A stretch of 64,000 nucleotides of DNA from a virus (Duplodnaviria; Heunggongvirae; Uroviricota; Caudoviricetes), in IMG/VR virus record IMGVR_UViG_3300037882_000610, positions 17,576 to 81,575 of that record; one strand, given 5' to 3'. This document shows positions 10,656 to 59,177 of this stretch, in pieces. The notes under the pieces were generated by a model. It did no database searches. It was not told the origin of the DNA and saw only the letters and a program-made list of their open reading frames with translations. Position 1 is the stretch's first letter. Each line of letters opens with the position of its first letter. A program made the position numbers and the translations under genes.

Positions 10656-10664
10656 GTGCCAGTA

Positions 10665-10693: not shown

Positions 10694-10713
10694 CTCGCAG
10701 GTTTGGAGATTGC

Positions 10714-11139
10714 GTGAAGTTCTCTGACTCACTCCGGGCGAACATCAAGAAAGCGCTCTGGCGAGTAAACGAAGCCTCGTACAAAGTCGCCAGAGCGTTG
10801 TTCGAGAGTGTAGTCAAGCTGACTCCCTCTCCATCACATCCCGGCCCACACGCCCACGGCATGTTGGCAAACCAGTGGTATCCAGACGAGAACGACTTCT
10901 CTGAAGAATTGGATAACCGGCTGAGCCCTACAGGGGCAGATAGCCTTGCTCGCATTCGAGCCATGAAGGGCTACGTCTTCAATCAGCGTGACGGCAAGCT
11001 GACACTCACCAACAACCTCTCATACGCCTACAGAGTGGAAGCTTTGGGCTGGCCTGTGGCTGATGGTTGGAGTGGACAGATTGGTCCGTATCGCATGGTT
11101 GCTCTCTCAATTCAACTGATTGCAGCAAGGTACAAATGA
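10714..11139 (+). CDS. tail completion / neck protein (putative)
   Basis: 141-aa ORF, GTG start, first gene after promoter; synteny. Confidence 0.35.
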   Translation: MKFSDSLRANIKKALWRVNEASYKVARALFESVVKLTPSPSHPGPHAHGMLANQWYPDENDFSEELDNRLSPTGADSLARIRAMKGYVFNQRDGKLTLTNNLSYAYRVEALGWPVADGWSGQIGPYRMVALSIQLIAARYK

Positions 11140-25478: not shown

Positions 25479-25912
25479 AAGCCCTTGACATTGCAGTAAA
25501 ACTCATTGCGAAGTTTGAAGGCTGTCGCCTCCAGGCTTACAAGGACATTGTTGGAATCCCTACCATCGGGTATGGTGAGACCAAGGGTGTAAAGATGGGC
25601 GATGTTTGGACGCAGGCCAAGGCTGACGCTGAGCTGCGGAGCCGCACACAAGAGTTCCTAGAGGGAGTCTTGAAGGCTGCACCCAAGCTAGCAGCGTTCA
25701 CGTCGAATCAACAAGCTGCCTGCACTTCATTGGCCTACAACATTGGCCTTGGGGCATTCGCTGGTAGCACAGTTGCCAAACGCATTGCAACAGGCGACCG
25801 GGCAGGAGCAGCAGATGCTTTCCTACTCTGGAACAAAGCGGGTGGACAGGTTGTCCAAGGCCTAGTCACTCGTCGCCAAGAAGAGCGTCGTGTCTTCATG
25901 TCACCAGAATGA
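25475..25912 (+). CDS. endolysin, GH24 (T4-type) lysozyme
   Basis: FEGCRLQAYKDIVGIPTIGYGETKG: catalytic E-x8-D-x5-T triad spacing. Confidence 0.8.
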   Translation: MKALDIAVKLIAKFEGCRLQAYKDIVGIPTIGYGETKGVKMGDVWTQAKADAELRSRTQEFLEGVLKAAPKLAAFTSNQQAACTSLAYNIGLGAFAGSTVAKRIATGDRAGAADAFLLWNKAGGQVVQGLVTRRQEERRVFMSPE

Positions 25913-26508
25913 CTGTAGGTATCTACCAAATTCTTAACACTGCAACTGGAAAGTCCTACGTTGGCAGTTCAGTGTGCATTGCCAGACGTTTCAGCAAGCA
26001 TAAAGCTCTACTCAGGAGTGGCAAGCATGTCAATGCCAAGCTGCAAGCTAGCTGGAACAAGCATGGTGAATCTGTGTTTGTGTTTTCTGCTTTAGAGTAT
26101 TGCGACGAAGGCATGCTCGATGCTAGAGAACAGGCGTGGATGCAGAAGTTGAATGCTGTCAAACAAGGCTACAACATCAATCCTGTTGCAGGTAGCAATC
26201 GAGGCTACAAACACACCGAAGAGTCGAAGCTACTCATCTCCAAAGCTGTATCTGGCAGGGAAGTCTCAGAAGCTACTCGCAACAAGCGTGCTGCTCTTAT
26301 GACCGGGACCAGTGTACCACAAGAAGTCAGAGAGAGGATTTCTCTAAGGCTCAAAGAAATTTCAAAGTCTGCGGACTTCCCTGGTAGGAGAAATCTTGAC
26401 AGGACTGGAACGAAGCAGACTCCAGAGCAGATTGCCAAGCGAGTCGCAGCAACTGCAAGAACGAAATCTATCAAAGCTGAGCAGAAGCTTGGCGCAACTG
26501 AAAGGTAA
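25909..26508 (+). CDS. GIY-YIG homing endonuclease (I-TevI/Seg-like)
   Basis: GIYQILNTATGKSYVGSS...RRFSKHK...NAKLQASWNKHG...E...GYN, C-terminal NUMOD-like repeats. Confidence 0.8.
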   Translation: MTVGIYQILNTATGKSYVGSSVCIARRFSKHKALLRSGKHVNAKLQASWNKHGESVFVFSALEYCDEGMLDAREQAWMQKLNAVKQGYNINPVAGSNRGYKHTEESKLLISKAVSGREVSEATRNKRAALMTGTSVPQEVRERISLRLKEISKSADFPGRRNLDRTGTKQTPEQIAKRVAATARTKSIKAEQKLGATER

Positions 26509-26513
26509 ACAAA

Positions 26514-28763
26514 ATGGCTACTACACAACTAGACATCAAGGGCGTGTTCGACAAGGACACAGGCCAACTGACTGGCTTCGCCTCACCTATGTCCCCTGAG
26601 ATTCCTCTCACATCCTTGGTGTCAGGGGCTCGGATTGTCGTCCTCCAGCCCGGTCGGTCGGCTGCGGCGGCAAACTGGGCGGCGATTGACGAGGCGCTGG
26701 CCGCTGCGCACACAGCTGGCCTTGCTGCCAAGGCCATGCAGTCTGTCGCTGTCTGGGGGCCTGGTGTGTTCTGGGTCGCCGGCCAAATCCGCGTCGGCAG
26801 CTGGACGAATCTGATCGTCGGTGATGGCGTGATCCTGCGCCGGGCGTGGACTGGTACAACCGAGAACGGCACGTTCCTGCGGAACCGGAACCAGCCGGCC
26901 AGCAACGCCGACACGACGACCGGAGACGTGAACGTCAAGGTGACGTGCTACGGCGAGTTCGACTGCAACTGCTACGACCCTACCGCAGTGTTCGGTCCCG
27001 GCTACTACTGGGACGGCATGCAGTGGATCTCGGTGGAGGGCCTGGGGCTCGACCCGATCCGCATCACGAATCCGGTCAAGACCCACGGGCGTTTGGCGAA
27101 GGTGAGCAACGCGCGCATCTACAACTACACGGTCGAGTACGACACGGCCGGCGTCTACACGCCCAACAACGGCAAGGACTTTTTGTTCATCGCCGGAAAC
27201 TGCCGCAACATCCACGTCAAGGGCGTCACCGGCCGCTCCAACGACGACGGCATCACTTGCAATACAGCCGACGTGCCTACGTGGTCGATCCCGTTTGCCG
27301 TCGGCCACATCAGCGACATCCTCGTCGAGGACGTGGACATCAACACGCGCGCACCAGGGCCTGGCGGCGCCACGCTGGCGCTTTATGCAGAGTGCTGGCT
27401 TGATGAAGCCAGCGGCCTCGGTGCCGGCAACGTCGATCCGTTCCTGGGCAACAAACCGGCAATCGCCTTCATCACGCAGTCGGCCGGCGTCGCAACGGTG
27501 ACGACCGACATCCCGCACAAGCTCAACGTCGGGTCTCGCGTCCAGATCAGCGGCGCCAACCCCTCGGGCTACAACACGACCGGATTTGGCTACCAGAACG
27601 GCTGGGCGGATGTCCACGCCGTGCCGTCCGCGACGACGTTTGAATATTTCGTGCAGAACACGACGGGCGCCTATGTGGGCAGCGCCGCGCTGCTGATTTC
27701 GTGGGATCTGAAAAACGTCGTGTACCGCAACGTGCGCGGCGTTGTCGGCACGAAGTTGAACACCTTCCGCAATCGCGGAGGCGTGGCTCGAAACGTCCGC
27801 TACGAGAACGTGCGCAGCAGCTCGTCCGCTAACGCGGCGGAGAGCATGATCGGCCTGAGCGGAACGACGGTGGTCAACCTCACGGTCGGGGATTGCGCGC
27901 CCGACACAAATGAGTGGGTCGGCCTCTTTGGCATGATCAACGGCGCCTATCTGGGCGGCGTGACCCGGTTCCTGGGCGGCGCAACGGCTTCGACTTTCCG
28001 CTCTCACTCGCCGAGCGGCCTGTGCTACATCGACGTGTCGCTGGGCGCCGAGCATGTTGTCGTCGAGGGCTACCATTTCCGGCAGGGCTTGGAGTCGGGC
28101 GACACCACAAAGTCGATCATCCGTATCGGCTCCGCCGTCAGGATGCTGACGGTCCGTGACTCGCGCTACTACTCTCCTCGCTCGGTCGGTGGGCGGTTTA
28201 TCCGGGCTGAGGGCGGTGATGCCTCGGACCAGATCATCAACATCGACGGCTGCGTGATCGGCGGCGACGGCTCGACCGGAGACGGTGGCGTGCTGCTGAT
28301 CCAGCCCACCACGACCGGCTCCGGGAAGCTGATCCTGAACCTGCAGAACACGCACTTTACTGGCGCTTTCAACTCGGCCATTGGTACGGTGGGCGGCCTG
28401 AATCTGCAGGTCAACGTGGACCGCGTGACGCTCAACAGCCTGACGAACGGTCTGCTGTATTTCTCGAATGCGAACTCCAACGTCGAGCTGAACGTCGGCG
28501 CCATCAACTACAACGGCCAGGCGTTGATGGCGGCGTCGCAGCCGTCGTGGACTGGCGGCGGCCTGACGGTGCGCGGCCTCAATGCCCGCATTGACATCGC
28601 CAAAGCGTTGCGCGCGGACGGCGCGGTCCTCTACAACACCAACGCGGCGGCCAACAACGGCACGGATGGTGCTGTGCCTGCTGGCCTGTACTTCTGCACC
28701 GGCACCGCGTCGGGCTCCTGGAAGCTCGCCGGCTCGACGGGCGGCGCGAACAAGCAGTATTGA
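26514..28763 (+). CDS. right-handed beta-helix protein (pectate-lyase-3 / tailspike / polysaccharide depolymerase-like), on high-GC island
   Basis: 749 aa; NCRNIHVKGVTGRSNDDGI, NxxG/VxxV parallel beta-helix rungs. Local GC about 65-68% versus about 50-55% elsewhere; a 719-aa shadow ORF lies on the opposite strand. Confidence 0.55.
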   Translation: MATTQLDIKGVFDKDTGQLTGFASPMSPEIPLTSLVSGARIVVLQPGRSAAAANWAAIDEALAAAHTAGLAAKAMQSVAVWGPGVFWVAGQIRVGSWTNLIVGDGVILRRAWTGTTENGTFLRNRNQPASNADTTTGDVNVKVTCYGEFDCNCYDPTAVFGPGYYWDGMQWISVEGLGLDPIRITNPVKTHGRLAKVSNARIYNYTVEYDTAGVYTPNNGKDFLFIAGNCRNIHVKGVTGRSNDDGITCNTADVPTWSIPFAVGHISDILVEDVDINTRAPGPGGATLALYAECWLDEASGLGAGNVDPFLGNKPAIAFITQSAGVATVTTDIPHKLNVGSRVQISGANPSGYNTTGFGYQNGWADVHAVPSATTFEYFVQNTTGAYVGSAALLISWDLKNVVYRNVRGVVGTKLNTFRNRGGVARNVRYENVRSSSSANAAESMIGLSGTTVVNLTVGDCAPDTNEWVGLFGMINGAYLGGVTRFLGGATASTFRSHSPSGLCYIDVSLGAEHVVVEGYHFRQGLESGDTTKSIIRIGSAVRMLTVRDSRYYSPRSVGGRFIRAEGGDASDQIINIDGCVIGGDGSTGDGGVLLIQPTTTGSGKLILNLQNTHFTGAFNSAIGTVGGLNLQVNVDRVTLNSLTNGLLYFSNANSNVELNVGAINYNGQALMAASQPSWTGGGLTVRGLNARIDIAKALRADGAVLYNTNAAANNGTDGAVPAGLYFCTGTASGSWKLAGSTGGANKQY

Positions 28764-28819
28764 TTCCCGCCCACATGCCACGAATCCCGAACCAGACAGA
28801 AGGTCGCACCCAGCCCGCG

Positions 28820-29314
28820 CTACTTCGTCGGGTGCGGCGGCGAGACGGAAGGTGGCGGAGCGCCTATCAGCTGATCAATCAGGCGATTCCCATCCAACTT
28901 CACATCCAAGGTGCAGCTGTTGATCGCGGCAAGAATGATGGCGAGAAGCGCGGCGTACAGGCCTGTTCGAGAGTTTGCTCGCACCAGCTTGCCGAACTCC
29001 GGATCAATCTTCTCTACCGCTTTCGCGAGGGTTTCTGGGTCCGCGTGTCTGGCACCTGCCTCCCTGATTGCCGCCGCAAAAGCTTGAAGCATCTCTCTCG
29101 TGACGTTAGAAGCAGAGATGACGGTAGCCACTTGGTTCGCCACATTGAAGACGCCTTCGGCGGCGTACGCAAGTCCGCCGCAATGCGGGCATCGGTCCTC
29201 AACGTTCTTGATGGTGAGCCCCACGACGGTGATTCCGCCTCCGACGGAGATGGCCTGGGTAGGGAATATGGCGCCGCACACGGTGCAGGCGGCAGGAAGC
29301 GGTGTATTGCTCAT
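28820..29314 (-). CDS. hypothetical zinc-ribbon protein with C-terminal TM helix
   Basis: CTVCG...CPHCGG plus LYAALLAIILAAI; inside GC-rich island. Confidence 0.3.
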   Translation of the reverse strand: MSNTPLPAACTVCGAIFPTQAISVGGGITVVGLTIKNVEDRCPHCGGLAYAAEGVFNVANQVATVISASNVTREMLQAFAAAIREAGARHADPETLAKAVEKIDPEFGKLVRANSRTGLYAALLAIILAAINSCTLDVKLDGNRLIDQLIGAPPPSVSPPHPTK

Positions 29315-29340
29315 TTATCTCTCCCCTTAAAAATCAGACT

Positions 29341-29460
29341 AGGAGTCCAGCCATGAACACCAAGGATAAGGTTTTCCTGCACGGCATCTTCGCGCTCGGC
29401 GCTTTCGCGGGCGGCATCGGTACCTGCGGCGCCTTTCTTCTGCTTGCTTGGCTTCGCTGA
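29341..29460 (+). CDS. small hydrophobic peptide (39 aa), putative
   Basis: MNTKDKVFLHGIFALGAFAGGIGTCGAFLLLAWLR read from sequence; not in ORF track (<60 aa). Confidence 0.2.
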   Translation, partial: RSPAMNTKDKVFLHGIFALGAFAGGIGTCGAFLLLAWLR

Positions 29461-29492
29461 TTGCCACGCCCTGCCGGTAGCTGCGGGAATTC

Positions 29493-30494
29493 TCAGGAAT
29501 GAGAGTTCTCTACGGCTTTCCAGTCTGCGTCTGTCAGCCCTCTGTCGTTAAGGTAGAGGGCTGTCATCTCAGCATGCTTATGTCCTAAGAGAGTTTGAAC
29601 CACTTCTGGCTTCATTTTCTCTGCGATGTAGGTGCGTGCAGACAGGGATCGGCATTCGTGAAGGCTGGGCCACTCGAACTGCTTGTAGGCCTCAGGTCCG
29701 CAGACAGCTACGATGTGCTCACGGAATCTCGCGCTTAGCGATGACATCTCGATAGGCTTGCCATTCTTCTTGCGAAGAAGCGTAGGCCCTTCGGCTCCGA
29801 TGTCTTTGCAGAGTTCTATGATTTCACCAAGCGTGATGCCAATTGCTTCAAGCTTCAAGTCAAGTGGGATAGCTACTCGGGCTCCGACTAGCTTCCTAGC
29901 TTTCTTCTGTTGTTCGATTCGCAAATGACCGTCCACAACATCCTCGAACTTCATCTTCACTAAGTCACCTCTACGTTGACCTGTAGCTAGAGCAAGTAAG
30001 AGCATGGCTGGCACCCACCGTTGAGGGCCAGACAATGCAAGGTGATACATAGCTTGCCACGTCTCCAAGGTCAGGCGTTTCCTAAGGCCTGGGGCTGCGG
30101 GAGTTTTGACGTGTGCCGCTGGGTTGTTATCTGCGATACCGTTGGCTATAGCCTCAACATATACATCTTTCAACTCAGATAAGACTCGTCCTGCTGAATG
30201 GGGAGAAAAAGTCTTCAGTTGTGTGGCAATCTCGAACGGCTTGATGGCTCGTAGTGGTCTGTCACCCAAGATACGTTGGATATGTCTGATAGAGCATCCA
30301 CGATTCTTGAGAGTCTGTTGGTGATAGCCTCGTTCAGAGACGATCCTCTGGAAGGTTTCTAACCACTCTGACATGGTTGGGCCTTCAGGGACGACCTGAG
30401 TTGGCGCAGGGGTTTGCGCTACTGGAGGGACGGACGAAGCTGCAATAAGTTGCCGAGCTTGCTTCAAAAGCTTTTTGAGTTTCTTCTTTTTCAT
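29493..30494 (-). CDS. int: tyrosine integrase / site-specific recombinase
   Basis: R (LATGQRRGDL), HxxR (HECRSLSAR), catalytic Y (TALYLNDRG); 333 aa. Confidence 0.8.
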   Translation of the reverse strand: MKKKKLKKLLKQARQLIAASSVPPVAQTPAPTQVVPEGPTMSEWLETFQRIVSERGYHQQTLKNRGCSIRHIQRILGDRPLRAIKPFEIATQLKTFSPHSAGRVLSELKDVYVEAIANGIADNNPAAHVKTPAAPGLRKRLTLETWQAMYHLALSGPQRWVPAMLLLALATGQRRGDLVKMKFEDVVDGHLRIEQQKKARKLVGARVAIPLDLKLEAIGITLGEIIELCKDIGAEGPTLLRKKNGKPIEMSSLSARFREHIVAVCGPEAYKQFEWPSLHECRSLSARTYIAEKMKPEVVQTLLGHKHAEMTALYLNDRGLTDADWKAVENSHS

Positions 30495-30585: not shown

Positions 30586-31110
30586 ATGGACTTCACATCA
30601 ATCGTAAAGACTGTAGCGCCTTGGATCGGTACAGCACTAGGCGGGCCTCTAGGAGGCATCGCTGTAGAAATGGCTACCAAGGCCTTGGGCGTGTCAGATA
30701 AAACGACTGAGGGGCTTAAAGCAGCCCTTGCCGGGGCCACTGCTGCGGATATGCTTGCCTTGAAGAAGGCAGATCAAGATTTTCAGACTCAAATGACTGA
30801 GCTGGGATTCAAAAATCAAGCGGACCTTGAGGGCATCGCCGCCAATGATCGGGCGTCAGCTCGTGACATGCAGAAGAGCATCCGCTCTTGGGTGCCTTCA
30901 GCCCTCTCAATCCTCATCGTCTCTGGCTTCTTCGTTTTGCTTGGCGGGATGATGACGGGCTGGCTAACAATCTCTGAGAGCCAAGCCTTGCTGTTGATGC
31001 TAGGCTCTCTCACGACAGGATTTGGTGTGGTGATGTCTTATTGGTTTGGAAGTACCAGTGGCAGCTCTGAAAAGACAGCCCTGCTGGCTAAGGCCTCACC
31101 AATCAAGTGA
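30586..31110 (+). CDS. holin-like membrane protein (3-TM, GTA-holin-like)
   Basis: Internal ATG 30586 with RBS AAGGGA. Motif ADLEGIAANDRASARDMQK then two TM helices. Confidence 0.35.
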   Translation: MDFTSIVKTVAPWIGTALGGPLGGIAVEMATKALGVSDKTTEGLKAALAGATAADMLALKKADQDFQTQMTELGFKNQADLEGIAANDRASARDMQKSIRSWVPSALSILIVSGFFVLLGGMMTGWLTISESQALLLMLGSLTTGFGVVMSYWFGSTSGSSEKTALLAKASPIK

Positions 31111-31580
31111 AGCCCGCCGATTGTTGCCCTGAGAAGCCTGTCCTGGCAAAAGGGCTTTGCAAACTATGCTACAGTAGAAGTCGATCAGACTATTTCAAAG
31201 CGTACAAGAAAGAGAACCCCACGACGAATGAGTCTTGGCAGATTCGTAAACATGATCCTGTGCAAAAAGACAGGGACGTTCAGACGTGGAAATGGAAGGC
31301 TCTGAAAAGGAACTACGGTCTGGGGAAAGACGAGTATTTGGCAATATTGGCAGAACAAAATTATGCTTGCAAGATATGCCAGAGACAGTTCTCAGAACTG
31401 ATTACCAGTAAGAAGCGTACACCAGAGAACGTAGACCATTGCCACACTTCAGGGCATGTTCGGGGAATTCTCTGCCATAACTGCAACGCAGGGCTAGGGC
31501 ACTTCAAAGACGATCCTAGTGCTATGCGAGCTGCCGCTCTGTACATAGAAACGACAAAAGCTCCTCAGACATCAGCCTGA
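31107..31580 (+). CDS. endonuclease VII (T4 gp49-like Holliday junction resolvase)
   Basis: CKLCY...ACKICQ...VDHCHTSGHVRGILCHNCNAGLGHF. Confidence 0.75.
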   Translation: MKPADCCPEKPVLAKGLCKLCYSRSRSDYFKAYKKENPTTNESWQIRKHDPVQKDRDVQTWKWKALKRNYGLGKDEYLAILAEQNYACKICQRQFSELITSKKRTPENVDHCHTSGHVRGILCHNCNAGLGHFKDDPSAMRAAALYIETTKAPQTSA

Positions 31581-33344: not shown

Positions 33345-33545
33345 TCAGAGACTGTTCAGGTCTGTAACGTGAATGTCGCCATTGTACACGACAGGAAGAC
33401 TTCGGTGTTGCTTCTCAACCACAAAATCCATTGCTGTCAGGTCTTCGTCAATGTTCTTTGCGACGAAGGGCAAATTCTTAGAATTGAGAAAAGCCTTAGC
33501 TCGTGTACAAGCTGGGCAGTTGTTCTTTGTGTAGATTGTAATCAA
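33345..33545 (-). CDS. nrdH: glutaredoxin-like protein NrdH
   Basis: 66 aa, CPAC redox motif near N-terminus; adjacent to RNR genes. Confidence 0.7.
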   Translation of the reverse strand: MITIYTKNNCPACTRAKAFLNSKNLPFVAKNIDEDLTAMDFVVEKQHRSLPVVYNGDIHVTDLNSL

Positions 33546-34108
33546 GTTCCGTGCCTCTCTGTGTAGCCTGCACCTTGCAGGTTGAGTTGTTCAATCATTG
33601 CCTTCCTGTATTTCACAGCCGCCGCAAAGGCTGGTAGAAGCCCCAGCTTGGAAATCGAAAAGCATTTCTGAGATGGCAATCTTTTGGTTGGATTCTTCCA
33701 AAAGGCTGTCCAATAGTAGTTCCCACTTTTTCCGTTGCTTGTACACGACACGCCAGTCACACCGGATGAGTTTGTTACCTGCTTCTTCTTGTTACGGCAA
33801 TTCACCTCGAAAGGTATAACGCGAAGGTTAGTAATGCAGTTGTTGTGGGAGTCGCCGTCTATGTGATCTACAGTCCCATTAGGAAGGCCATGAAATAGCT
33901 TCCAGATTATGATGTGGATAGGATAATCGCACATCTCCAACATCACGTGGGCGTAGCGTTTTTTCTTTTTACTCCCCGCCACACTACCGGCTGGGAGACG
34001 GACGTAGCCAACGCCACGTCCGTTTATCACGTCATGTTTCCATCTCAAAAACGTGGGGCTAGTCTCGTCGTAGTAGAAATGAGCGTGCCAATCAATTTCA
34101 TCTTGCAT
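33542..34108 (-). CDS. HNH-AP2 homing endonuclease (paralog family 1 of 4)
   Basis: YYDETSPTFLRW...VDHIDGDSHNNCITNLR (HNH) plus SSGVTGVS...YWTAFW (AP2-like). Start moved to internal Met because the promoter -10 lies downstream of the ORF-track ATG. Confidence 0.65.
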   Translation of the reverse strand: MQDEIDWHAHFYYDETSPTFLRWKHDVINGRGVGYVRLPAGSVAGSKKKKRYAHVMLEMCDYPIHIIIWKLFHGLPNGTVDHIDGDSHNNCITNLRVIPFEVNCRNKKKQVTNSSGVTGVSCTSNGKSGNYYWTAFWKNPTKRLPSQKCFSISKLGLLPAFAAAVKYRKAMIEQLNLQGAGYTERHGT

Positions 34109-34125
34109 GATGCCTCCAAAGCGAG

Positions 34126-34154
34126 ATTGTAGCATGAAGTTCTCGCTTTGTCAA
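34126..34154 (-). promoter_or_regulatory. consensus sigma70-type promoter (- strand) TTGACA-N17-TACAAT driving HNH-nrdH
   Basis: -35 at 34154..34149, -10 at 34131..34126. Followed by GGAGG and ATG at 34108. Confidence 0.55.
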
Positions 34155-39797: not shown

Positions 39798-40356
39798 CAG
39801 CGCCTCCCCATTGGGCTGCCATGGCTTCTGCGATGCCCGCGAAAGTCCGGTCCCGGACTTTCCAACGATCAGGGCTAGGCGGAAGCTTATGAATCCTCTG
39901 TTCTCTCCCTTCCACTATGTTTGTAGGTACAAGCTTAGGAAGGTTCTTCAACCAAAGGCAAGTAGCTTTAGTCTCCCCGTGTCCAAACATCCAAGGTTGT
40001 ATAGTTTGATCCGGCTTACGCCACTTCGTGGACATGATACAGACTGGATTCTCGATAGCAATTCTCTCAATAGGGCTGTTCGCAAGCCTCGTGAAAAATT
40101 CAATTGCTGCCTGCTGTCTTCCATCTGCGATCTTTGCAGCAAAATGTCTTGCTCCGCTGACTGCTAGATGCGTACAGGGAGGGTGCGCAATCATCAAATC
40201 CCATCCTTGGTCAATGATGTCGAATACATCTCCTTTGTAGTGATAAGGACTTCCGTCCTCTGCATCTAACAAATCGCATGACCAGGCATCATGGCCCAGT
40301 TTTCGGAACGCCTCCCTCACACGCCCACTGTATTCACAGGCGACTAGAACGCGCAC
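39781..40356 (-). CDS. short protein with C5-cytosine-methyltransferase-like motif IV (PPCT..S..G)
   Basis: VLVACEYSG ... MIAHPPCTHLAVSGARH; only 191 aa, other MTase motifs not seen. Confidence 0.3.
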   Translation of the reverse strand: MRVLVACEYSGRVREAFRKLGHDAWSCDLLDAEDGSPYHYKGDVFDIIDQGWDLMIAHPPCTHLAVSGARHFAAKIADGRQQAAIEFFTRLANSPIERIAIENPVCIMSTKWRKPDQTIQPWMFGHGETKATCLWLKNLPKLVPTNIVEGREQRIHKLPPSPDRWKVRDRTFAGIAEAMAAQWGGAVDKRT

Positions 40357-40922
40357 GTTCCACCTTCCAAGTGCCTATCAGTGTAGCCTGCATATTGCTC
40401 GTTCAATTCTTTCATCTTTTCCTTTCGAAAATTCACAGCCGCTTGGAACGATTCTGTAGAGAGCCCCATGAAGTATTTGCTACCTCTGGTGCCATCTAGA
40501 TTGCTCCACTGAGCTACCCACCCCGAATAGACCTCACCTCGCTTGGTTCTGTGTTTCTGTGAGACTCCCGTTGTACCCGATACATTGTCGTGCCGCCGTA
40601 TCTTGTTTCTAGCGTTCAAGGTAGAGTCCACAAGACGGAGATTACCGATTTTGTTGTTCGACCTATCTCCGTCCTTGTGATCTAGCATCTTGCCAGCCGG
40701 TACGGAACCGTGATGCAATTCATAGACTACGATGTGAACATTGTAATCAACATCGAACAGACTGAGCCTGAAATAGCCGTCGTTCATTCGTCCTCCGGCT
40801 ACAGAATCCCTAGCATGTTCTAATTTGCACAGACCTTTGCCAGAGTAGCGGTCACAAGAAAATCTCAGATAAGTTGGGCTAGTCTCGTCGTAGTAGACGT
40901 GTTCTGACCAGTTAATATTCAA
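40344..40922 (-). CDS. HNH-AP2 homing endonuclease (paralog 2 of 4)
   Basis: VYYDETSPTYLRF...LDHKDGDRSNNKIGNLR...SGTTGVSQ...YSGWVAQW; TTG start. Confidence 0.7.
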   Translation of the reverse strand: MNINWSEHVYYDETSPTYLRFSCDRYSGKGLCKLEHARDSVAGGRMNDGYFRLSLFDVDYNVHIVVYELHHGSVPAGKMLDHKDGDRSNNKIGNLRLVDSTLNARNKIRRHDNVSGTTGVSQKHRTKRGEVYSGWVAQWSNLDGTRGSKYFMGLSTESFQAAVNFRKEKMKELNEQYAGYTDRHLEGGTCAF

Positions 40923-43736: not shown

Positions 43737-43933
43737 GCGGGCGTGTACACGGCATCTTCTGTCGTGAATGTCTCTGTGGCTTCGTCGTATTCGAGGACTG
43801 GATTCGTGAGTCCTCTGATGTTCGTGCAGCCTTCAAGGCCCGGCACAGGAACCGATAGAACGTATACAGCCCCCTTGCCAATGACGACTTCACCGATAAT
43901 CTCGGCGTATCGGACGAGTTCTTTTTCGATCAT
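43733..43933 (-). CDS. hypothetical protein (66 aa)
   Basis: ORF track. Confidence 0.3.
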   Translation of the reverse strand: MIEKELVRYAEIIGEVVIGKGAVYVLSVPVPGLEGCTNIRGLTNPVLEYDEATETFTTEDAVYTPA

Positions 43934-44598
43934 AGGCTCCCCTCATTGAAAGCTTCCAACACCATCTCCCGGAGTTCGTCCAAGGTTCCAACGTTGTAGA
44001 TAGTGATGTCGTCAAGACCGAACGAAACTCCGGCCTCGCTTGCATGTGCATTGACGGTTTGAGCGTCTGGACGATATACATGCCAGACTTGCCCACCCAG
44101 AGAGCGAATCATCTCAGCTTCGTTGTCGAAACGAACGTCTGTGACAATCACTGGCACACTCAGACGCAGAATGCTCTCAATCTTGCGCTTGGCAAGCATG
44201 AGCCACAAGTCAGTGTGCACCATCGACCGTCCCCAGTCAGTGCCCAGCATCTGGAGCAGTTGTCGAGGGCTCTTGCCCAGCCAGTCCAGAACCTCTTCCT
44301 TGAGGCTGCCATTGACGTGTTCGTCCGTCAATTGTAGCATAGTTTTGAGGCCTGTCTTCAAAGGCTCCGCAAAAGATACGGAAGCAATCGCCCTGCCCTC
44401 TGAGAGCATGGATGCTACTGTGTCCTTACCTGAGCGTGCCTTGCCAGTAAGGCCAATCAAACGTGCAGGAGCGGCTACCTCTTGTGTACTCGGTGCTACT
44501 GGCTTCCACTTCAGGAAGTCCTCTGTCTTTACTTCGACGACGGTCTTAGCAAGACCAGGGGCGTAAAGCCGACCTTGATCCGCAACTTCTGGAACCAT
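43930..44598 (-). CDS. deoxynucleoside monophosphate kinase (T4 gp1-like)
   Basis: P-loop GLTGKARSGKDT, TDVRFDNEAEMIRSLGG. Confidence 0.6.
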   Translation of the reverse strand: MVPEVADQGRLYAPGLAKTVVEVKTEDFLKWKPVAPSTQEVAAPARLIGLTGKARSGKDTVASMLSEGRAIASVSFAEPLKTGLKTMLQLTDEHVNGSLKEEVLDWLGKSPRQLLQMLGTDWGRSMVHTDLWLMLAKRKIESILRLSVPVIVTDVRFDNEAEMIRSLGGQVWHVYRPDAQTVNAHASEAGVSFGLDDITIYNVGTLDELREMVLEAFNEGSL

Positions 44599-45131
44599 GT
44601 TCCCTCCTTAGTAATTTCAGCATGCCTGTCAAGGTACGCAAGTCGAGCCATCCAGATAGGCAAGCGCCTGATCTTCAGATTCGGGTATGGTTCATATCCA
44701 GGCCACTCCACAGGCGGCTGGCCTGGAGCTGGCTTGGGCATGACTGCCGGCTTCTCAGTCATCAAGACCCGCATGTCCGCTTCCTTGACGGATGGCGGGA
44801 ACGGGAAGCGAATGCCTGTGTTCTTGGCAATAGCTGTCTCAACGTGGAACTCGCGACACTTGTAGTCGGGCAGCAGGCGCTTCAAGGGGCTAGACACATC
44901 CCCAAGGTAGGCTTCTGAGTCGTCGTGGTGGAGTCCTTCAAGAGCATCCTCTTCAGGCACCATGTAGCTCACATACACCGCATGCTGAGACACAGGGTAG
45001 AACCACTTGCAGTGGCCTGTGTATCGGCAAATGTGAGAAAGGGCATGAGCCCTCTCTTTCAGTGGATAGCTGTGACGCTCAGGCTCTTCGAACTCGAAGT
45101 AGTAGCCCTCGCTTGTGAGGATATGACTCAC
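44529..45131 (-). CDS. HD-domain 5'-deoxynucleotidase (YfbR-like)
   Basis: H...HICRYTGH ... HHDDSEAYLGDV (HD motif). Confidence 0.55.
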   Translation of the reverse strand: MSHILTSEGYYFEFEEPERHSYPLKERAHALSHICRYTGHCKWFYPVSQHAVYVSYMVPEEDALEGLHHDDSEAYLGDVSSPLKRLLPDYKCREFHVETAIAKNTGIRFPFPPSVKEADMRVLMTEKPAVMPKPAPGQPPVEWPGYEPYPNLKIRRLPIWMARLAYLDRHAEITKEGTWFQKLRIKVGFTPLVLLRPSSK

Positions 45132-45460
45132 CAGAAGTCCGTGTAGTTGCCGGATTCGACAGCCTCGTACAGGTCATTCAAGTCCCTGAACAGAGCCACG
45201 CTCCTGTTGTTGCGGAAGTGGCCTTCCAAGGCGTTGCCTTCGGCATCAACGGGCACCATGTACGCTCCGATGGAGCCTCCATTGATGAGGAAGTTCAGTT
45301 CGAATCGCTTCTCACCGAGAACCAGAATGTCCCCTGGCCGTTCCAACTTCCGCACATCGGTGACGGTCTGGGCTTCCTTCAGCCAACGTTGGGCGTTCCT
45401 GTATCCTTCGCTCATCTCAACCTCCTTGAACTCGTGCACGAATGGTGGCGAAATTCTCAT
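45128..45460 (-). CDS. hypothetical protein (110 aa)
   Basis: ORF track. Confidence 0.35.
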   Translation of the reverse strand: MRISPPFVHEFKEVEMSEGYRNAQRWLKEAQTVTDVRKLERPGDILVLGEKRFELNFLINGGSIGAYMVPVDAEGNALEGHFRNNRSVALFRDLNDLYEAVESGNYTDFW

Positions 45461-47003
45461 TGATGAGAATCTTGCCGTCCTTGAAGACTGTCTGAAGCAG
45501 ACTGCTATCTTCTTCCTCAGGCGTCACTTGGTCACTCTGCTTCAGTGTGCCGTCAGCCCCCCTGTAGACGCAGATCAGACCACGGGCAGACTTCTTGGTG
45601 CCGTCATCCGTCTTCGGGTCTTTGAACAACTCCAGGCCCTTGCCATCGACAACAGCATACGTGGCCTTGATTGCCATGCCCAGCGTGTCACGGCTGACCA
45701 TCTGATACGTGTAGCTGCCCACACCGAACACGACATTGCTGGAGGCGAAGCCCTTCTCTTGCAAGCGACGGAAGATTTCGTCCGCACGCTCCAGAGTGAT
45801 GGAGTCACCGTAGATCAGGCCGATGCTCGGGTCCAGCAGCTTGTAGCCGTTGGCGTTGAGCGTACCACCGAACTCATCGTACAGCACTTGAATGCTGCCC
45901 TTCACTTCTTCTTCAGTGATCGGCTTGAGATGGAAGTCATGGATAGCCGGGGCGTTCCATTGCTCCTTGACAAAGATGCCTTGCGAGGATCGGACAATCT
46001 CATCCTCACGGTAGCCGCAGATGACTCGCACGGGGTCGCCAGAGTCGGGACGCACCACAACCTTGCCCGGCAGCACACCGAGAGCAGGACGTGCACGAAT
46101 CTCGTCCTTGAGAGCCGGCAGGTACTTGGTCAGCACTTGCCAGTAGTCGAGCGTATCGCTGACGACAGACACGATGCCAGCCGGGTAGTCCTTGGTGATC
46201 CAACGCTTGATGGTCTCCAGCTCGCCATCCACAGCGATGCCCAGAGAGGTCACGCTGTGCTCAGAGGCCGGGACAGACGCTGCAATGAACGTGCCTTGTG
46301 GTGAGCCACCGTAGAGCTGGTCGATGTAGTCGAGGGCAGCCACAGTGTCAGTGCCGCAGTGGCCTGCCAGCAAGTGGGCGAAGCCTGACATTGCAGCAGC
46401 GTGCCGACCGAACATGCCACGAGCAGAGAAGTCGTGGAACTGGAAAACCAAGTGATCCAGATTGGCACAAGTCTCCAGGCCGAAGCGCTTGCCCAGCAGG
46501 TAGAACTGGTAGGCGACAGTCGCGTTGGTGACGATAGGCCACACTTCTTGCGACAGCACAGTCTCCAGATATGTCACCAGCCATGCGAAGCGGGGGTCCG
46601 TGTTCGTGACGGTCAGGAATGCCACCTTCAGGGGCACCTTGGAGCCCTCAGGCAAGGCCTTCAGCTCGATAGGCAGGTAGCCCAGCTTGTGCAGCTCTTG
46701 GAAGTGCTCCATGCTGACGGAGCCAGCGCCCAGGTAGCCTTCGACACGGGCCTTCCACTCGGCAATCACGGTCTTGAACGGACGCTTGAAGAAAGTGTCG
46801 TTCCACTCACCAATCAGGACATTCTTGATGAATGCCTGAACACCCGCCACGATGACGAGATGTTCACCCGGACCCCACTTGGCGTACTTGCCAGAGCGGG
46901 CCGTGAAGTTGGCGTAGATTTGCGTGGTGCCGTCAGCCATGAACTTCTTGTGGCTCAGCTTGTAGGCGTCGGTCTGGGCGGTTGCAACGGGGGTGTAACT
47001 CAT
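45417..47003 (-). CDS. nicotinamide phosphoribosyltransferase-family enzyme (NadV/Namat-like)
   Basis: 528 aa, NAMPT-type fold signatures (DAYKLSH, FGRHAAAMSGFAH, SVPASEHSV, GDSITLERA). Confidence 0.75.
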   Translation of the reverse strand: MSYTPVATAQTDAYKLSHKKFMADGTTQIYANFTARSGKYAKWGPGEHLVIVAGVQAFIKNVLIGEWNDTFFKRPFKTVIAEWKARVEGYLGAGSVSMEHFQELHKLGYLPIELKALPEGSKVPLKVAFLTVTNTDPRFAWLVTYLETVLSQEVWPIVTNATVAYQFYLLGKRFGLETCANLDHLVFQFHDFSARGMFGRHAAAMSGFAHLLAGHCGTDTVAALDYIDQLYGGSPQGTFIAASVPASEHSVTSLGIAVDGELETIKRWITKDYPAGIVSVVSDTLDYWQVLTKYLPALKDEIRARPALGVLPGKVVVRPDSGDPVRVICGYREDEIVRSSQGIFVKEQWNAPAIHDFHLKPITEEEVKGSIQVLYDEFGGTLNANGYKLLDPSIGLIYGDSITLERADEIFRRLQEKGFASSNVVFGVGSYTYQMVSRDTLGMAIKATYAVVDGKGLELFKDPKTDDGTKKSARGLICVYRGADGTLKQSDQVTPEEEDSSLLQTVFKDGKILINENFATIRARVQGG

Positions 47004-47012
47004 GTTCTCTCC

Positions 47013-47852
47013 TTAGATTTGTTCCACGTACTGGCTGAATTGCTTCTTAGCCTCTGGACGCAGATTGTACACGAAGATGCGATCAAACAGATCATTCAGC
47101 TCCACGAATTTTTCGGGATTGGTGAACATCCCGTGTGTCACGTACAAGCACAACTCAGCCGGCTCGAACTCGCGTGCAACCCTGCCCAGCTCAAGGAAGG
47201 TAGCTCCACCATCGCAGAGGTCGTCCACGATGCAGACAGTCTTGCCAGTCAGCCTGCCACCATAGGGCAGCACTGTCTTGGTGATCTTGCCTTCAGGGCT
47301 GCGGACCTTCGATGCACAGATGACTTCCGTTCCCAAGGCCACTTGATTGTGCTTGAAGATTTTCTTCTCAGCACCAGCGTCAGGAGCCAGCAGCACGTCG
47401 AACTTGGGCAGCTCCCTTGCACACTTTTCTTGCGGATAGGGAGCCAAGCGATCCAGCAACGCCTCCAGCACAGTCGAGTGGGCGTCATCAACGCACACGT
47501 ACTTGAAGTTGAGCTGGTTGATGAATTGGCAGGCAATCTTGAGGGCGTGACCTTCTCCCAGATTCGCACGACGGTCCTGCCGTGCATACGGGAAGTAGGG
47601 AATCCAAGCTGAGATTGCCACGTCGAGGTTGACAGCGCGGATAGCGTCCACTAGCTGTGCTAGAGCGAACAGGTCGTCGTTGCTTGAGAACTCAACCTTG
47701 ATTCCCACTTCAGTCAGCTTGGGGCTGGCGAGATTGGCGAGGATTTCGGTTGTGAGCTGCACGCCCACTTCTCCGCAAGGGAACTTCCACACCTTGGGAT
47801 CGTAGAACTCGGCTGCATCGTTTGTGAAGCCCTTGAATGCGATCTTCAGCAT
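47013..47852 (-). CDS. ribose-phosphate pyrophosphokinase-family enzyme (Prs/Adps-like)
   Basis: PYFPYARQDRR flag region and PRPP-binding loop CIVDDLCDGGATF. Start at internal MLKIAFKG with GGAG. Confidence 0.7.
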   Translation of the reverse strand: MLKIAFKGFTNDAAEFYDPKVWKFPCGEVGVQLTTEILANLASPKLTEVGIKVEFSSNDDLFALAQLVDAIRAVNLDVAISAWIPYFPYARQDRRANLGEGHALKIACQFINQLNFKYVCVDDAHSTVLEALLDRLAPYPQEKCARELPKFDVLLAPDAGAEKKIFKHNQVALGTEVICASKVRSPEGKITKTVLPYGGRLTGKTVCIVDDLCDGGATFLELGRVAREFEPAELCLYVTHGMFTNPEKFVELNDLFDRIFVYNLRPEAKKQFSQYVEQI

Positions 47853-48190
47853 TTGCGAATCTCCACGTCGCCAGAGCCGACTTTGCCGACCCAGATGAAT
47901 TGGACTTCGCCCAGCTCGGAACGAATCTCGAATGTCGTCGTCCACTCACCTTCGTGGTAGGACGTGGCAGCGTAGCCGCCTGTGATGCGGGTGTTGAGCA
48001 CGCTGGTCAGGTCGCCAGTGACTTCAACCAAGCGACTGTGGCCTGAGCTGCTGTCAATGATGACATCAGGGCTGAGAGCATCCTTCGTGTTCAGGACAAC
48101 GAAGTCCCGATTCACGTCATCTCCCATCTCCACGCTCATGCCTTCGATTTCAACGCCAGCTACCCAGTAGCCAAAGTCATTGTAGTTCAC
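47846..48190 (-). CDS. hypothetical protein (114 aa)
   Basis: ORF track. Confidence 0.35.
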   Translation of the reverse strand: MNYNDFGYWVAGVEIEGMSVEMGDDVNRDFVVLNTKDALSPDVIIDSSSGHSRLVEVTGDLTSVLNTRITGGYAATSYHEGEWTTTFEIRSELGEVQFIWVGKVGSGDVEIRKC

Positions 48191-48542
48191 TAAGCAACTC
48201 CTTCATTTGTTGATTGAATGACTGGATGGCCCAGCCGATCTTTGCACCTGTCAAGTCGGTGTAGCCTTTTTCATGCAACCACTTCAGCAGGACAGGGGCG
48301 CTGATCCTGTAGTAGTAGATGCGACCTTCTGACCTGACGAAGCGCTTGTGAGGAAAGTCCTCGGGGAACTTCGTCACATACGGAAAGGCCACTATAACAT
48401 TGTTCGCACCAAGAAGATAGGCATCCAGACAAGCTTTTTCAAGCTTCACGTAGTCTTTTCGCCTCATGCTCCTCAGGGTTGCGAGGTAAGCCTTGGTAGG
48501 CCTGCCTCGTAAACGCTCTTTCTCAGTTCTGAGATTTTCCAT
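48177..48542 (-). CDS. hypothetical protein (121 aa)
   Basis: ORF track. Confidence 0.35.
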   Translation of the reverse strand: MENLRTEKERLRGRPTKAYLATLRSMRRKDYVKLEKACLDAYLLGANNVIVAFPYVTKFPEDFPHKRFVRSEGRIYYYRISAPVLLKWLHEKGYTDLTGAKIGWAIQSFNQQMKELLSELQ

Positions 48543-48984
48543 GCACCTCCAAGTATTGGACTGCTCTTCTTACCAACATCAAGTCGTCTCTGAAAAAGCC
48601 AAGGCCTCGATTGCAAGTGTTGCATAGCAGCCCACGAACCCTGTCAGTCTCGTGGCAATGATCCACGGCAAAGGACATACGCTTGCGTGGGGTGTTGCCC
48701 TCTCCTGCTGGATTCTTGGTTCTGCATATGTCACAAGCAGAGCCTTGCTGCTCTAGCATGGCTTCATAAGCTTCTACAGTTAGCCCGAATGTTTTAGACA
48801 AGTGTCTTCGTCTGTTACCCAACCAAGTACCGGGGCTGTTTGCTCTGGCACTTTTCCGAGCTGCATCGTCGCAAGGCTTACACCTATACCCTTTACCATC
48901 TTTGGAACTTTTGCTGTTGTAGAACGCCTCCAGAGGTTTCAGTTCCTTGCATGTACCGCACTTCTTCAATGACAGTCCCGCCAA
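48523..48984 (-). CDS. endonuclease VII family protein (second copy)
   Basis: CGTCKE...CKPCD...CDICR...VDHCHETDRVRGLLCNTCNRGLGFF. Confidence 0.7.
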   Translation of the reverse strand: MAGLSLKKCGTCKELKPLEAFYNSKSSKDGKGYRCKPCDDAARKSARANSPGTWLGNRRRHLSKTFGLTVEAYEAMLEQQGSACDICRTKNPAGEGNTPRKRMSFAVDHCHETDRVRGLLCNTCNRGLGFFRDDLMLVRRAVQYLEVHGKSQN

Positions 48985-58640: not shown

Positions 58641-59177
58641 TTAAGCCTTTCCATGCCTATTGGTGTAGCCAGCACCTTGGGCGTTAAGTTGTAAAATTTG
58701 TTCCTCCCGCCACTGGCAGGCTAGGTGGAACGCAGCGTCTCCGTATGTGCCCACAGAGTATGACTTGTACCTTCTTTTACCATCCAGAGTCTTGATGCCG
58801 GCTTGCCAACTATCAGACTTTGAATGGTAGTTCACTCCACAGACACCCGATGTGTTTCTGAAGTTCATCTTGGTATTTCTATTGTTTACAGCTAGCGGAA
58901 TCGCTCTCAGATTACTTCTAAAGTTGTTCCGCCAATTCCCGTCTTCATGATCTACGATGTACCCTTCCGGGACTTCCCCGTTGAACATTTCGTAGATGAT
59001 CTTGTGCACAGGATGCTGAACGCCTCTCAGCTTGATTCTATAGCATCTAGAGCCGACACTACCTGCAACAGCATCCTTCTGTACGAGCAAAACACTATCT
59101 TGAAAGCCAGTCCAAACATTTATTGCCCATCTCAGGCACGTTGGGCTACTTTCATCGTAGTAAAACTCAGACCACAT
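58641..59177 (-). CDS. HNH-AP2 homing endonuclease (paralog 3 of 4)
   Basis: FYYDESSPTCLRW...VDHEDGNWRNNFRSNLR...SGVCGVN...SWQAGI. Confidence 0.7.
   Translation of the reverse strand: MWSEFYYDESSPTCLRWAINVWTGFQDSVLLVQKDAVAGSVGSRCYRIKLRGVQHPVHKIIYEMFNGEVPEGYIVDHEDGNWRNNFRSNLRAIPLAVNNRNTKMNFRNTSGVCGVNYHSKSDSWQAGIKTLDGKRRYKSYSVGTYGDAAFHLACQWREEQILQLNAQGAGYTNRHGKA

Follow-up and report, generated by a model that had tools for sequence, protein, structure and literature searches.

Organization of the locus

The window, that is, the whole 64-kb stretch of phage DNA analysed here (64,000 nt), carries a gene for a PRPS-like protein of 279 aa directly upstream of a gene for a NAMPT-like protein of 528 aa (Table 1). 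The TAA stop of the first gene, adps, is followed after 9 nt by the ATG of the second, namat, on the same strand, and a ribosome-binding site (AAGGAGAG) lies inside this gap. The 279-aa product begins at an internal ATG (47852) of a minus-strand ORF spanning 47013-47945; the same start is the JGI call for an identical metagenome protein (P0001), and close relatives start likewise. The motifs PYFPYARQDRR and CIVDDLCDGGATF are both found in the Prs-like protein. Everything that a preliminary description of the interval 45417-47852 had listed, namely the ORFs, both motifs, their order and the common strand, is thus present in the sequence.

Table 1. Positions (in the window) of the adps-namat pair and of the features around it
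Feature	Position	Strand	Description
adps	47013..47852	minus	279-aa PRPS-like predicted ADP-ribose pyrophosphokinase (ADPR-PP synthetase)
namat	45417..47003	minus	528-aa NAMPT-like predicted nicotinamide ADP-ribose transferase
Shine-Dalgarno-like AAGGAGAG	47007..47014	minus	Between adps stop (47015-47013) and namat ATG (47003-47001); read from sequence
orf114	47846..48190	minus	114 aa, predicted all-beta; distant DUF7448 relative; candidate accessory gene
orf95	45128..45415	minus	95 aa; variable slot between namat and HD phosphatase
orf121	48177..48542	minus	121 aa; context gene, outside NARP1
HD-domain dNMP phosphatase (phrog_318)	44529..45131	minus	Context gene
dNMP kinase	43930-44598		

The pair is not a chance assembly of reading frames: the 528-aa protein scores 603 bits against phrog_448 (NAMPT) and the 279-aa protein 223 bits against phrog_619 (phage Prs-like), and comparison with the closest relative gives dN/dS values of 0.09 (adps) and 0.15 (namat). 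Both genes are under purifying selection. On the plus strand, opposite namat and adps, there are two further long ORFs (45147-46304 and 46401-47612), which are taken to be shadow ORFs.

Identity of the 528-aa protein

Several lines of comparison predict that the 528-aa protein is a Namat and not a Nampt. Its best matches in the PDB are 9w5x/9w5w (411 bits), whose residue numbering agrees with that of the SPbetaL1 Namat of PMC12774641, against 200 bits for human NAMPT. Identity amounts to 44-47% with the Namats of SPbetaL1, FADO and Felixounavirus, and to 30-34% with eight Nampts gathered by a search with human NAMPT; the latter include the Nampt of the KVP40-like phage ValKK3 (30%) and two phage Nampts adjoining NMNAT-Nudix genes. 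In a neighbour-joining tree of 61 sequences the eight Nampts are split from all others in 100 of 100 bootstrap replicates, and the window protein lies on the side of the Namats. PDB entry 9ke8 (motif GAQTYQRNTRD), which scores 372 bits against the window protein, was considered as a KVP40 Nampt but rejected as such: among phage proteins it comes closest to the Namats of Bacillus phages (56-58% identity), and IMG/VR contains few relatives of it.

Namats are distinguished by an adenine-clamp helix with the consensus GS-X-Phi-X-Phi-X-Phi-TRD, whereas Nampts have GxGG(G/A)LLQ instead (PMC12774641). The corresponding helix in the window protein reads GSYTYQMVSRD (G429-S-Y431-T-Y-Q-M435-V-S-R-D439), with Tyr at position 3, Thr, Gln and Val at Phi1, Phi2 and Phi3, and SRD at its end. 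Six of the seven positions that discriminate Namat from Nampt match, the exception being position 7, which is occupied by the non-aromatic Met435; in SPbetaL1 this position is Tyr396, an aromatic adenine contact (PMC12774641). Met is found here in the whole lineage of the window phage and in a few other Adps-linked Namats (loci L027, L047, L071/72 and L074), and for this reason Met435 looks like tolerated variation. The substrate preference of a Namat bearing it could be weaker.

The clamp loop S37-G38-K39-Y40 aligns with R40 of SPbetaL1, NKY of FADO and DKW of Felixounavirus. By the criterion of Arg, Lys or Tyr at the third position, a Lys there being followed by the stacking residue, K39-Y40 is of the Lys type, as in FADO and Bas63. 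The catalytic core is conserved throughout: D12, Y14, F192, R195, D219, H249, R318 and D320 correspond to D13, Y15, F189, R192, D215, the His of A-x-E-H-S, R306 and D308 in SPbetaL1 numbering, R318 (R306) being the catalytic Arg. An insertion of 27 aa is located at approximately aa 336-362; at this site some 90 aa are present in the Felixounavirus Namat.

Identity of the 279-aa protein

The 279-aa Prs-like protein is in turn predicted to be an Adps. It scores 184.6 bits on an HMM built from Namat-linked viral Adps, with its own lineage left out. A Prs HMM gives it 43.8 bits, close to the 43.9 bits of the SPbetaL1 Adps. On TIGR01251 (cut-off 113) the values are 84.6 bits for the window protein, 106 for the SPbetaL1 Adps and 422.7 for E. 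coli Prs, and neither the window protein nor the SPbetaL1 Adps reaches the cut-off of any of the 11 NCBIfam Prs models. These models span a wider Prs family than the outgroup of our tree, in which Prs represented by Gammaproteobacteria only are separated from the remaining sequences, the window protein among them, in 100 of 100 replicates. Identity is low throughout, with 36% to the Felixounavirus Adps, 29% to that of ICP1, 27% to that of SPbetaL1 and 25% to E. coli Prs.

Adps are described as being marked, as a defining signature, by having lost the alpha11-alpha12 filament/regulatory module at the C-terminus of Prs (PMC13586617). This module is missing from the window protein, which stops about 25 alignment columns short of E. 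coli Prs (315 aa), and the Prs N-terminal module is missing as well. Acceptor residues, and a PP loop by which the ATP donor is bound, are defined by the structure of the ICP1 Adps (PMC13586617). Its acceptor residues R87, H121, D161, D212, D213 and D216 correspond to R91, H125, D158, D210, D211 and D214, and the catalytic Lys of the beta-hairpin is K182 here, K185 in ICP1 and K162 in SPbetaL1. As these catalytic and acceptor residues are largely conserved in Prs too, they would indicate an active enzyme and not its substrate specificity. The PP loop, which is remodelled in Adps, reads C213-D-G-G-A-T218-F219, compared with C215-D-G-A-A-S220-F in ICP1, CDGGRTF in Felixounavirus and IDTGGTL in E. 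coli Prs. Of the ICP1 adenine contacts F18, R87 and F92, the first two are conserved as F24 and R91, while F92 is replaced by Ala96; other Adps have Met or no residue at this position, which is hence not conserved. The canonical Prs motif ARQDRR is retained.

The comparison of both proteins with the Prs/NadV and the Adps/Namat clades, which the preliminary description had proposed as a check, accordingly places both on the Adps/Namat side. The opposite outcome, a position in the housekeeping Prs and NadV clades together with an NMNAT gene, was looked for and is not what we found in the 64-kb window.

NAD+ genes in the window and linkage of the pair

None of the 78 ORFs in the window that reach 60 aa has an NMNAT domain (PF01467), and six-frame tblastn and hmmsearch of the window with two phage NMNAT-Nudix proteins gave no match, so that the absence of NMNAT first claimed for the neighbouring ORFs extends to the 64-kb window. 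The window is part of a source contig of 81,575 bp, about 17.5 kb of which lies beyond it. Nudix, Macro and RyR domains are likewise lacking within the window. The small flanking ORFs match neither of the known NARP1 accessory genes (the Macro-domain Adpp and the RyR-domain RyDEP), with no Pfam match for a Macro domain or RyR (PF02026) even at E up to 5.

Linkage of the two genes is widespread. An Adps homolog occurs at most 6 kb from the Namat homolog, always on the same strand, in 76 of 80 IMG/VR loci, and 97% of Adps are reported to have a Namat within 10 genes. The order adps-namat is kept in five further metagenomic relatives. Moreover, the two proteins match the N-terminal and the C-terminal part of a single profile, phrog_12872, which suggests that fused Adps-Namat versions exist. 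Relatives of the window Namat in IMG/VR are at most 48% identical, and closer ones came from a search of metagenome proteins.

Two relatives (L187 and L190) have the same operon backbone but not adps and namat, and the pair is therefore accessory. The DNA polymerase is 56% identical to that of Aeromonas Plateaulakevirus phages, to which the window phage is only distantly related, and NARP1 does not lie beside the polymerase of the cultured relative Aeromonas phage phiA047. No megablast match to positions 44500-48600 was found among 50,697 phage records; hence the window phage is new at the DNA level.

Neighbouring genes

The three small ORFs reported earlier on the flanks of the pair (45128-45460 and 47846-48542) exist, the first with its start refined to the ATG at 45415 and the others delimited as orf114 and orf121. 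The orf114 stop and the adps ATG lie in a 7-nt overlap of the two genes, an arrangement of translational coupling. This gene is fast-evolving; it stands directly upstream of adps in all six NARP1-bearing relatives and is missing in both NARP1-less relatives with the same polymerase/orf121/dNMP-kinase backbone. Its link to DUF7448 is indirect, since a jackhmmer search from a true DUF7448 ORF (in L046) did not recover it. We regard it as rather unlikely that orf114, adps and namat form a three-gene NARP1 module in this phage lineage; the co-variation may reflect a single acquisition event, and the structural model of orf114 is poor. In such a module orf114 could be a new accessory factor, inhibiting a host effector in an immunity-like manner or, by analogy with Adpp and RyDEP, acting as an enzyme that feeds a non-standard NAD+ breakdown product into NARP1.

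On the other side of the pair, the likeliest start of orf95 lies 1 nt past the namat stop, with AAGGAGG 5 nt upstream. Neither the four closest relatives (L082, L086, L087 and L088) nor the 80 IMG/VR loci yielded a homolog of orf95, and searches of Pfam, PHROGs and NCBIfam gave none either. Its stop is overlapped by the GTG start of the HD phosphatase gene, which in L082 directly follows namat. The HD phosphatase and the dNMP kinase are taken to be one nucleotide-metabolism module. The phosphatase was also considered as an analogue of Adpp but discarded as such: its family is that of the T5-type dNMP phosphatases, it is found nearby in just one of 80 other NARP1 loci, and in L088 a dGTP diphosphohydrolase-like gene stands in its place. 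The orf121 family consists of small proteins encoded after the DNA polymerase gene in relatives with and without NARP1.

Proposed function and competing explanations

The phage is an uncultured tailed one, and the two genes in its early/replication operon very probably constitute a functional NARP1 pathway. This reading, which the preliminary description had put forward, is supported by the clade placement, the clamp motif with its six matching positions out of seven, the Adps signatures, the operon linkage and the absence of NMNAT from the window, and all sequence-level discriminators from the canonical route that could be tested agree with it. The two reactions and the anti-defence role are proposed by analogy with the characterised homologs of SPbetaL1, Bas63, FADO and ICP1. 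Host NADases (SIR2, TIR and SEFIR effectors) of Thoeris I, DSR1/2, SIR2-HerA and similar systems would cleave NAD+ into ADP-ribose and nicotinamide. Adps, with K182 as the catalytic residue, would pyrophosphorylate ADP-ribose on its 1'' hydroxyl, taking the beta,gamma-pyrophosphate from ATP and yielding ADPR-PP, and Namat would swap the pyrophosphate of ADPR-PP for nicotinamide. The product would be NAD+ directly, and therefore NMN adenylyltransferase would not be needed.

In canonical salvage, the Prs-like protein would instead make PRPP and the NAMPT-like protein NMN, which would be converted further by an NMNAT, either that of the host (NadR/NadD) or one encoded by the phage beyond the window, as part of a NARP2-like or a plain metabolic route. 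The generic Pfam/NCBIfam names (Prs and NAPRTase) and the retained ARQDRR motif fit this scheme, Namat enzymes also yield NMN from PRPP in vitro (10.1101/2024.02.11.579819; PMC12774641), and the remainder of the contig has room for an NMNAT. It is nevertheless very improbable, and the earlier judgement that NadV plus NMNAT does not fit is supported: the sub-cut-off TIGR01251 score, the missing N- and C-terminal Prs modules and the Adps-type PP loop speak against a Prs, while the adenine clamp and the position in the 100/100 split speak against a Nampt. The window moreover has no NMNAT, whereas 94% of Nampt-type phage enzymes co-occur with one, and the two pathways were not found together in any phage (10.1101/2024.02.11.579819).

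A further explanation accepts NARP1 chemistry but sees its main role in general NAD+ homeostasis during infection, for instance in recycling ADP-ribose from ADP-ribosylation and NAD+ turnover by phage or host. The pair does lie in a nucleotide-metabolism/replication operon, near genes for the dNMP phosphatase, dNMP kinase, ribonucleotide reductase and thymidylate synthase and in surroundings that are not an obvious anti-defence island, and its location is the same in six related contigs. However, NARP1 deletion had a phenotype solely with NAD+-depleting systems in every phage tested, and ADPR-PP was detected solely when a defence system was present (10.1101/2024.02.11.579819); together with the accessory nature of the pair this leaves a main role in homeostasis with only a slim chance. 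Hardly credible is a decaying, non-functional remnant of a NARP1 cassette, to which the non-aromatic Met435 and the 27-aa insertion might point. Catalytic residues are intact in both enzymes, the dN/dS values are low, ribosome-binding sites are intact and the genes tightly coupled; the Met and the insertion site are also common to the relatives at 67-87% identity, and the Met recurs in other Adps-linked Namats.

Comparison with known systems

The predicted NARP1 pair of the window has the same gene order on one strand as the NARP1 of Bacillus phages SPbetaL1 and FADO, E. coli phage Bas63 (Felixounavirus) and Vibrio phage ICP1 (NrsA/NrsB). It also shares with them the protein families and clades, the catalytic Lys and Arg, the PP loop, the clamp loop and, position 7 excepted, the clamp helix, the lost C-terminal module and, within the 64-kb window, the lack of NMNAT. 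It differs in its low sequence identity, in Met435 for the Tyr of SPbetaL1, in the Prs-like ARQDRR of Adps, in the lineage-specific 114-aa gene coupled upstream and in its position inside a DNA-polymerase/dNMP-kinase operon.

NARP2 of Vibrio phage KVP40 (Nampt/NadV with the bifunctional NMNAT-Nudix protein NatV) likewise rebuilds NAD+ and uses a homologous NAMPT fold with the same catalytic core. Its route through PRPP and NMN, however, needs NMNAT and has no Adps, and its Nampt carries GxGG(G/A)LLQ instead of the aromatic clamp; the window has neither NMNAT nor Nudix. Extra small operon genes beside a core adps-namat pair, as here, are known from NARP1-AP of Vibrio phage Gary, with the Macro-domain ADPR-1''-phosphatase Adpp, and from the NARP1 of mycobacteriophage DyoEdafos, with the RyR-domain glycosidase RyDEP, but the flanking ORFs of the window have neither domain. 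Housekeeping Prs and bacterial NadV/Nampt have folds and core catalytic residues in common with the window proteins. These nevertheless differ from Prs in falling under all Prs cut-offs and lacking the regulatory/filament modules, from NadV/Nampt in the adenine clamp, and from both in being encoded by adjacent phage genes.

Implications

NARP1 is an established, widespread counter-defence reported in 4.3% of sequenced phages (10.1101/2024.02.11.579819). The system is already known, and the pair in the window is one more example of it, divergent but ordinary. The analysis corrects the annotation of the two genes, which databases would name Prs and nicotinate/nicotinamide phosphoribosyltransferase. 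The Met in the clamp helix and the ARQDRR motif of Prs type are natural variants for probing the published specificity rules. The pair is a movable cassette that occupies a variable slot within a conserved replication operon and is accompanied by one gene that co-varies with it (orf114), and the phage and its relatives are predicted to resist NAD+ depletion by type I Thoeris, DSR, SIR2-HerA and SEFIR systems.

Classification of the two proteins

Generic models assign the 528-aa protein to the NAPRTase/NAMPT family alone, and we therefore applied the published discriminators between Namat (nicotinamide ADP-ribose transferase) and Nampt. The alignment comprised the window protein, four metagenomic relatives, 80 IMG/VR homologs, validated or near-validated reference Namats (Bacillus phages SPbetaL1 and FADO, and Felixounavirus Alf5, of the genus of Bas63) and eight Nampts (human, KVP40-like ValKK3 and phages RsoM2USA, RTH11, Mx1, B23, Cp1R7A-A1 and V1VFA-S; the last two genes adjoin annotated NMNAT-Nudix genes). 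Nampts were separated from all other sequences (bootstrap 100/100) with the window protein on the Namat side, and it shares 44-47% identity with Namats and 30-34% with Nampts. Its best PDB matches are 9w5x and 9w5w (411 bits; human NAMPT 200 bits), whose residue numbering agrees with that of SPbetaL1 Namat in PMC12774641.

The clamp helix of Namats follows the consensus GS-X-Phi-X-Phi-X-Phi-TRD (PMC12774641); the window protein reads G429-S-Y-T-Y-Q-M-V-S-R-D439, and all eight Nampts have GxG(G/A)(G/A)LLQ at the corresponding site. In the clamp loop, K39-Y40 aligns to SPbetaL1 R40 and is of the same type as the lysine followed by a stacking residue in Bas63 Namat (PMC12774641). The catalytic core residues are all conserved (R318 corresponds to SPbetaL1 R306). 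Met435, at clamp position 7, replaces the adenine-contacting Tyr396 of SPbetaL1, but is common to 5/5 metagenomic relatives and several unrelated Adps-linked Namats, and may be tolerated variation. A 27-aa insertion (about residues 336-362) coincides in position with some 90 additional residues in the Felixounavirus Namat. We also observed that PDB 9ke8, labelled nicotinamide phosphoribosyltransferase (see also locus L170), is nearest to Bacillus-phage Namats (56-58% identity) and has a non-aromatic clamp, GAQTYQRNTRD.

The 279-aa Prs-like protein carries both motifs named in the preliminary description, PYFPYARQDRR and CIVDDLCDGGATF, and thus retains the ARQDRR motif of Prs. However, Pfam Prs domains score only 26.7, 21.9 and 18.5 bits, at or under threshold, against 223 bits for phage family phrog_619, and the best solved Prs (E. 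coli) reaches only 54 bits. It falls under the cut-off of 11/11 NCBIfam Prs models, as does the experimentally characterised Adps (ADP-ribose pyrophosphokinase) of SPbetaL1; on TIGR01251 (cut-off 113) the window protein scores 84.6 bits, SPbetaL1 Adps 106 and E. coli Prs 423. Against an HMM of Namat-linked viral Adps that leaves out the window's own lineage it scores 184.6 bits, versus 43.8 for a Prs HMM, on which SPbetaL1 Adps scores 43.9. The Prs sequences, gammaproteobacterial only, split from the rest at 100/100 in a neighbour-joining tree.

K182 corresponds to the catalytic lysine (K185 in ICP1, K162 in SPbetaL1; mapped to PMC13586617), and counterparts of ICP1 R87, H121, D161, D212, D213 and D216 are all kept. 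The donor-binding PP loop reads CDGGAT-F; ICP1 has CDGAAS-F and Prs has IDTGGT-L. The protein is without the C-terminal alpha11-alpha12 module of Prs, whose loss is described as a defining signature of the Adps family (PMC13586617). ICP1 Phe92 aligns to Ala96, a position variable among Adps. Identity is only 27-36% to reference Adps and 25% to E. coli Prs. A further Adps-like protein (P0119, 38% identical to the window Adps) is encoded in a cyanobacterial chromosome of 3.88 Mb (Geminocystis sp. NIES-3708), consistent with reported bacterial NARP1 homologs.

Gene layout and linkage

The coordinates first proposed for the two ORFs matched exactly. The mechanical adps ORF reaches back to GTG 47945, but the ATG start is backed by a JGI metagenome protein of identical sequence (P0001, 279 aa, from a contig of 81,575 bp) and is likewise favoured by start codons in relatives. 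The genes are closely packed: the TAA stop of adps is followed by AAGGAGAG and the namat ATG, a gap of 9 nt. The three small flanking ORFs of the preliminary description are present, with adjusted junctions: orf114 (47846-48190, minus strand, 114 aa), upstream, runs 7 nt into the start of adps. orf95 (45128-45415, minus strand, 95 aa) starts 1 nt past the namat stop, preceded by a perfect AAGGAGG, and its own stop overlaps the start codon, GTG, of the gene for an HD-domain dNMP phosphatase. No same-strand terminator-like site was found inside the cluster, the first being at 42232-42214. With dN/dS against the closest relative of 0.09 (Adps), 0.15 (Namat), 0.24 (orf114) and 0.16 (orf121), all four are real coding genes.

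Coordinates of features in the window and in one unrelated phage
Feature	Position	Strand	Remarks
namat (NAMPT-like)	45417-47003	-	ORF, 528 aa
adps (PRPP-synthetase-like)	47013-47852	-	ORF, 279 aa counted from ATG 47852
14 tRNA genes	482-3313	+	upstream of terminase gene
Tyrosine integrase	29496-30494	-	phrog_7244/phrog_1, Pfam Phage_integrase; between lysis/tail and early genes
HNH/AP2-type ORFs (three)	33542-34135, 40344-40922, 58641-59177	-	shared motif YYDETSPT.LR
GIY-YIG/NUMOD3 ORF (one) and endonuclease VII-like ORFs (two)	25909-26508 (+), 31107-31580 (+), 48523-48984 (-)
Bona fide DUF7448 gene	L046 3614-4018		104 bits; three genes upstream of adps in IMG/VR phage L046/L070

Among the 80 IMG/VR loci, which were retrieved using the window Namat, an Adps homolog lies within 6 kb of the Namat homolog in 76 and is in every case encoded on the same strand; of the other four, two are interrupted by a contig end. 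Separate halves of one profile, phrog_12872, match Adps and Namat, which suggests that fused versions exist. Phage enzymes of the Nampt type co-occur with NMNAT in 94% of cases, and no phage with both pathways is reported (Osterman et al., 10.1101/2024.02.11.579819). Among the 78 ORFs in the window with 60 aa or more, none has a CTP_transf_like/NMNAT, Nudix, Macro or RyR domain, and a six-frame search of the window with two phage NMNAT-Nudix proteins gave no match, so the proposed lack of an NMNAT holds across these 64 kb of the 81,575-bp source contig. Within the window, the alternative of housekeeping Prs and NadV proteins accompanied by an NMNAT is thus contradicted by clade placement, adps-namat linkage and the lack of NMNAT.

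Flanking ORFs and relatives

Five metagenomic relatives (L082, L086, L087, L088 and L189; Adps 54-85% and Namat 67-87% identical) keep the order polymerase, (endonuclease VII), orf121, orf114, adps, namat, (variable small ORF), HD phosphatase, dNMP kinase. The orf121 family has 121 cluster representatives, and because members follow the polymerase gene in L187 and L190, contigs without adps and namat, orf121 is, judging from gene order, part of the replication backbone and not of NARP1. The slot after namat holds orf95 in the window, is empty in L082 and is taken up in L086, L087 and L088 by unrelated small ORFs; no orf95 homolog was found in the relatives or libraries searched.

The presence of orf114 tracks NARP1 (6/6 bearing contigs, 0/2 lacking). 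It may hence be part of the cassette that is inserted between orf121 and the dNMP kinase; all six positive contigs belong to a single clade, however, so that this co-occurrence may reflect a single acquisition. A word-indexed protein search gave only one orf114 homolog. The L088 homolog scores 25.2 bits against DUF7448 (cut-off 27), and the family HMM matches a true DUF7448 gene in an unrelated IMG/VR phage (E 4e-4), weakly suggesting distant kinship with this Pfam family. Neither of the known NARP1 add-ons, Macro-domain Adpp and RyR-domain RyDEP (10.64898/2026.01.28.702374; 10.64898/2026.05.28.727677), occurs among orf95, orf114 and orf121. orf114 could, with low probability, be a lineage-specific third component.

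Divergence from L086 is uneven along the operon (Namat 83%, HD phosphatase 86%, Adps only 60% and orf114 46% identical), which suggests recombination or faster evolution in the upstream half of the cassette. In L190, which lacks NARP1 but shares the operon backbone, a Gad2-like gene (PF26128, anti-Gabija) lies a few kb further downstream, at 10272-11042; it thus appears that relatives gather different counter-defence genes in this region.

Genomic setting

The window is a segment of a tailed-phage genome. Terminase, portal, capsid, tape measure and lysis genes lie on the plus strand, as does the tRNA array (Lys x2, Cys, Val, Met x2, Asp, Ile, Glu, Asn, Trp, Arg, Phe, Pro). The minus-strand replication block encodes primase-helicase, UvrD-like helicase, family A DNA polymerase, endonuclease VII and ATP-dependent ligase, together with dNMP kinase, ribonucleotide reductase and thymidylate synthase. 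Given the tyrosine integrase the phage may be temperate, a lifestyle unusual for a phage that also encodes a DNA polymerase, ribonucleotide reductase and tRNAs. None of 50,697 phage records matches its 44500-48600 region at the nucleotide level. The DNA polymerase of the phage shares 56% identity with those of the Aeromonas Plateaulakevirus phages, and the adps-namat pair is absent beside the polymerase in the Plateaulakevirus phage phiA047.

A GC-rich island (26000-30000; 0.59 versus about 0.52 elsewhere) contains ORFs of 749 aa (26514-28760) and 198 aa (28760-29356) with essentially no family matches, and may represent a tail-fibre or host-range module gained by horizontal transfer. Homing-endonuclease-like genes are numerous; the second HNH/AP2-type ORF separates exonuclease and DNA methyltransferase genes that are adjacent in L082.

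Predicted pathway

By analogy with homologs characterised in SPbetaL1, Bas63, FADO and ICP1, from which we infer the chemistry, ADP-ribose and nicotinamide released by defence NADases would be reused: Adps would convert ADP-ribose with ATP to ADPR-PP, and Namat would join this to nicotinamide to give NAD+, with no NMN intermediate and no NMNAT. Clades, motifs, HMM scores, linkage and the lack of NMNAT in the window support the NARP1-type interpretation originally put forward, and the pair is best taken, at the level of sequence, as a divergent new example of known NARP1, one that existing anti-defence annotation rules would detect.
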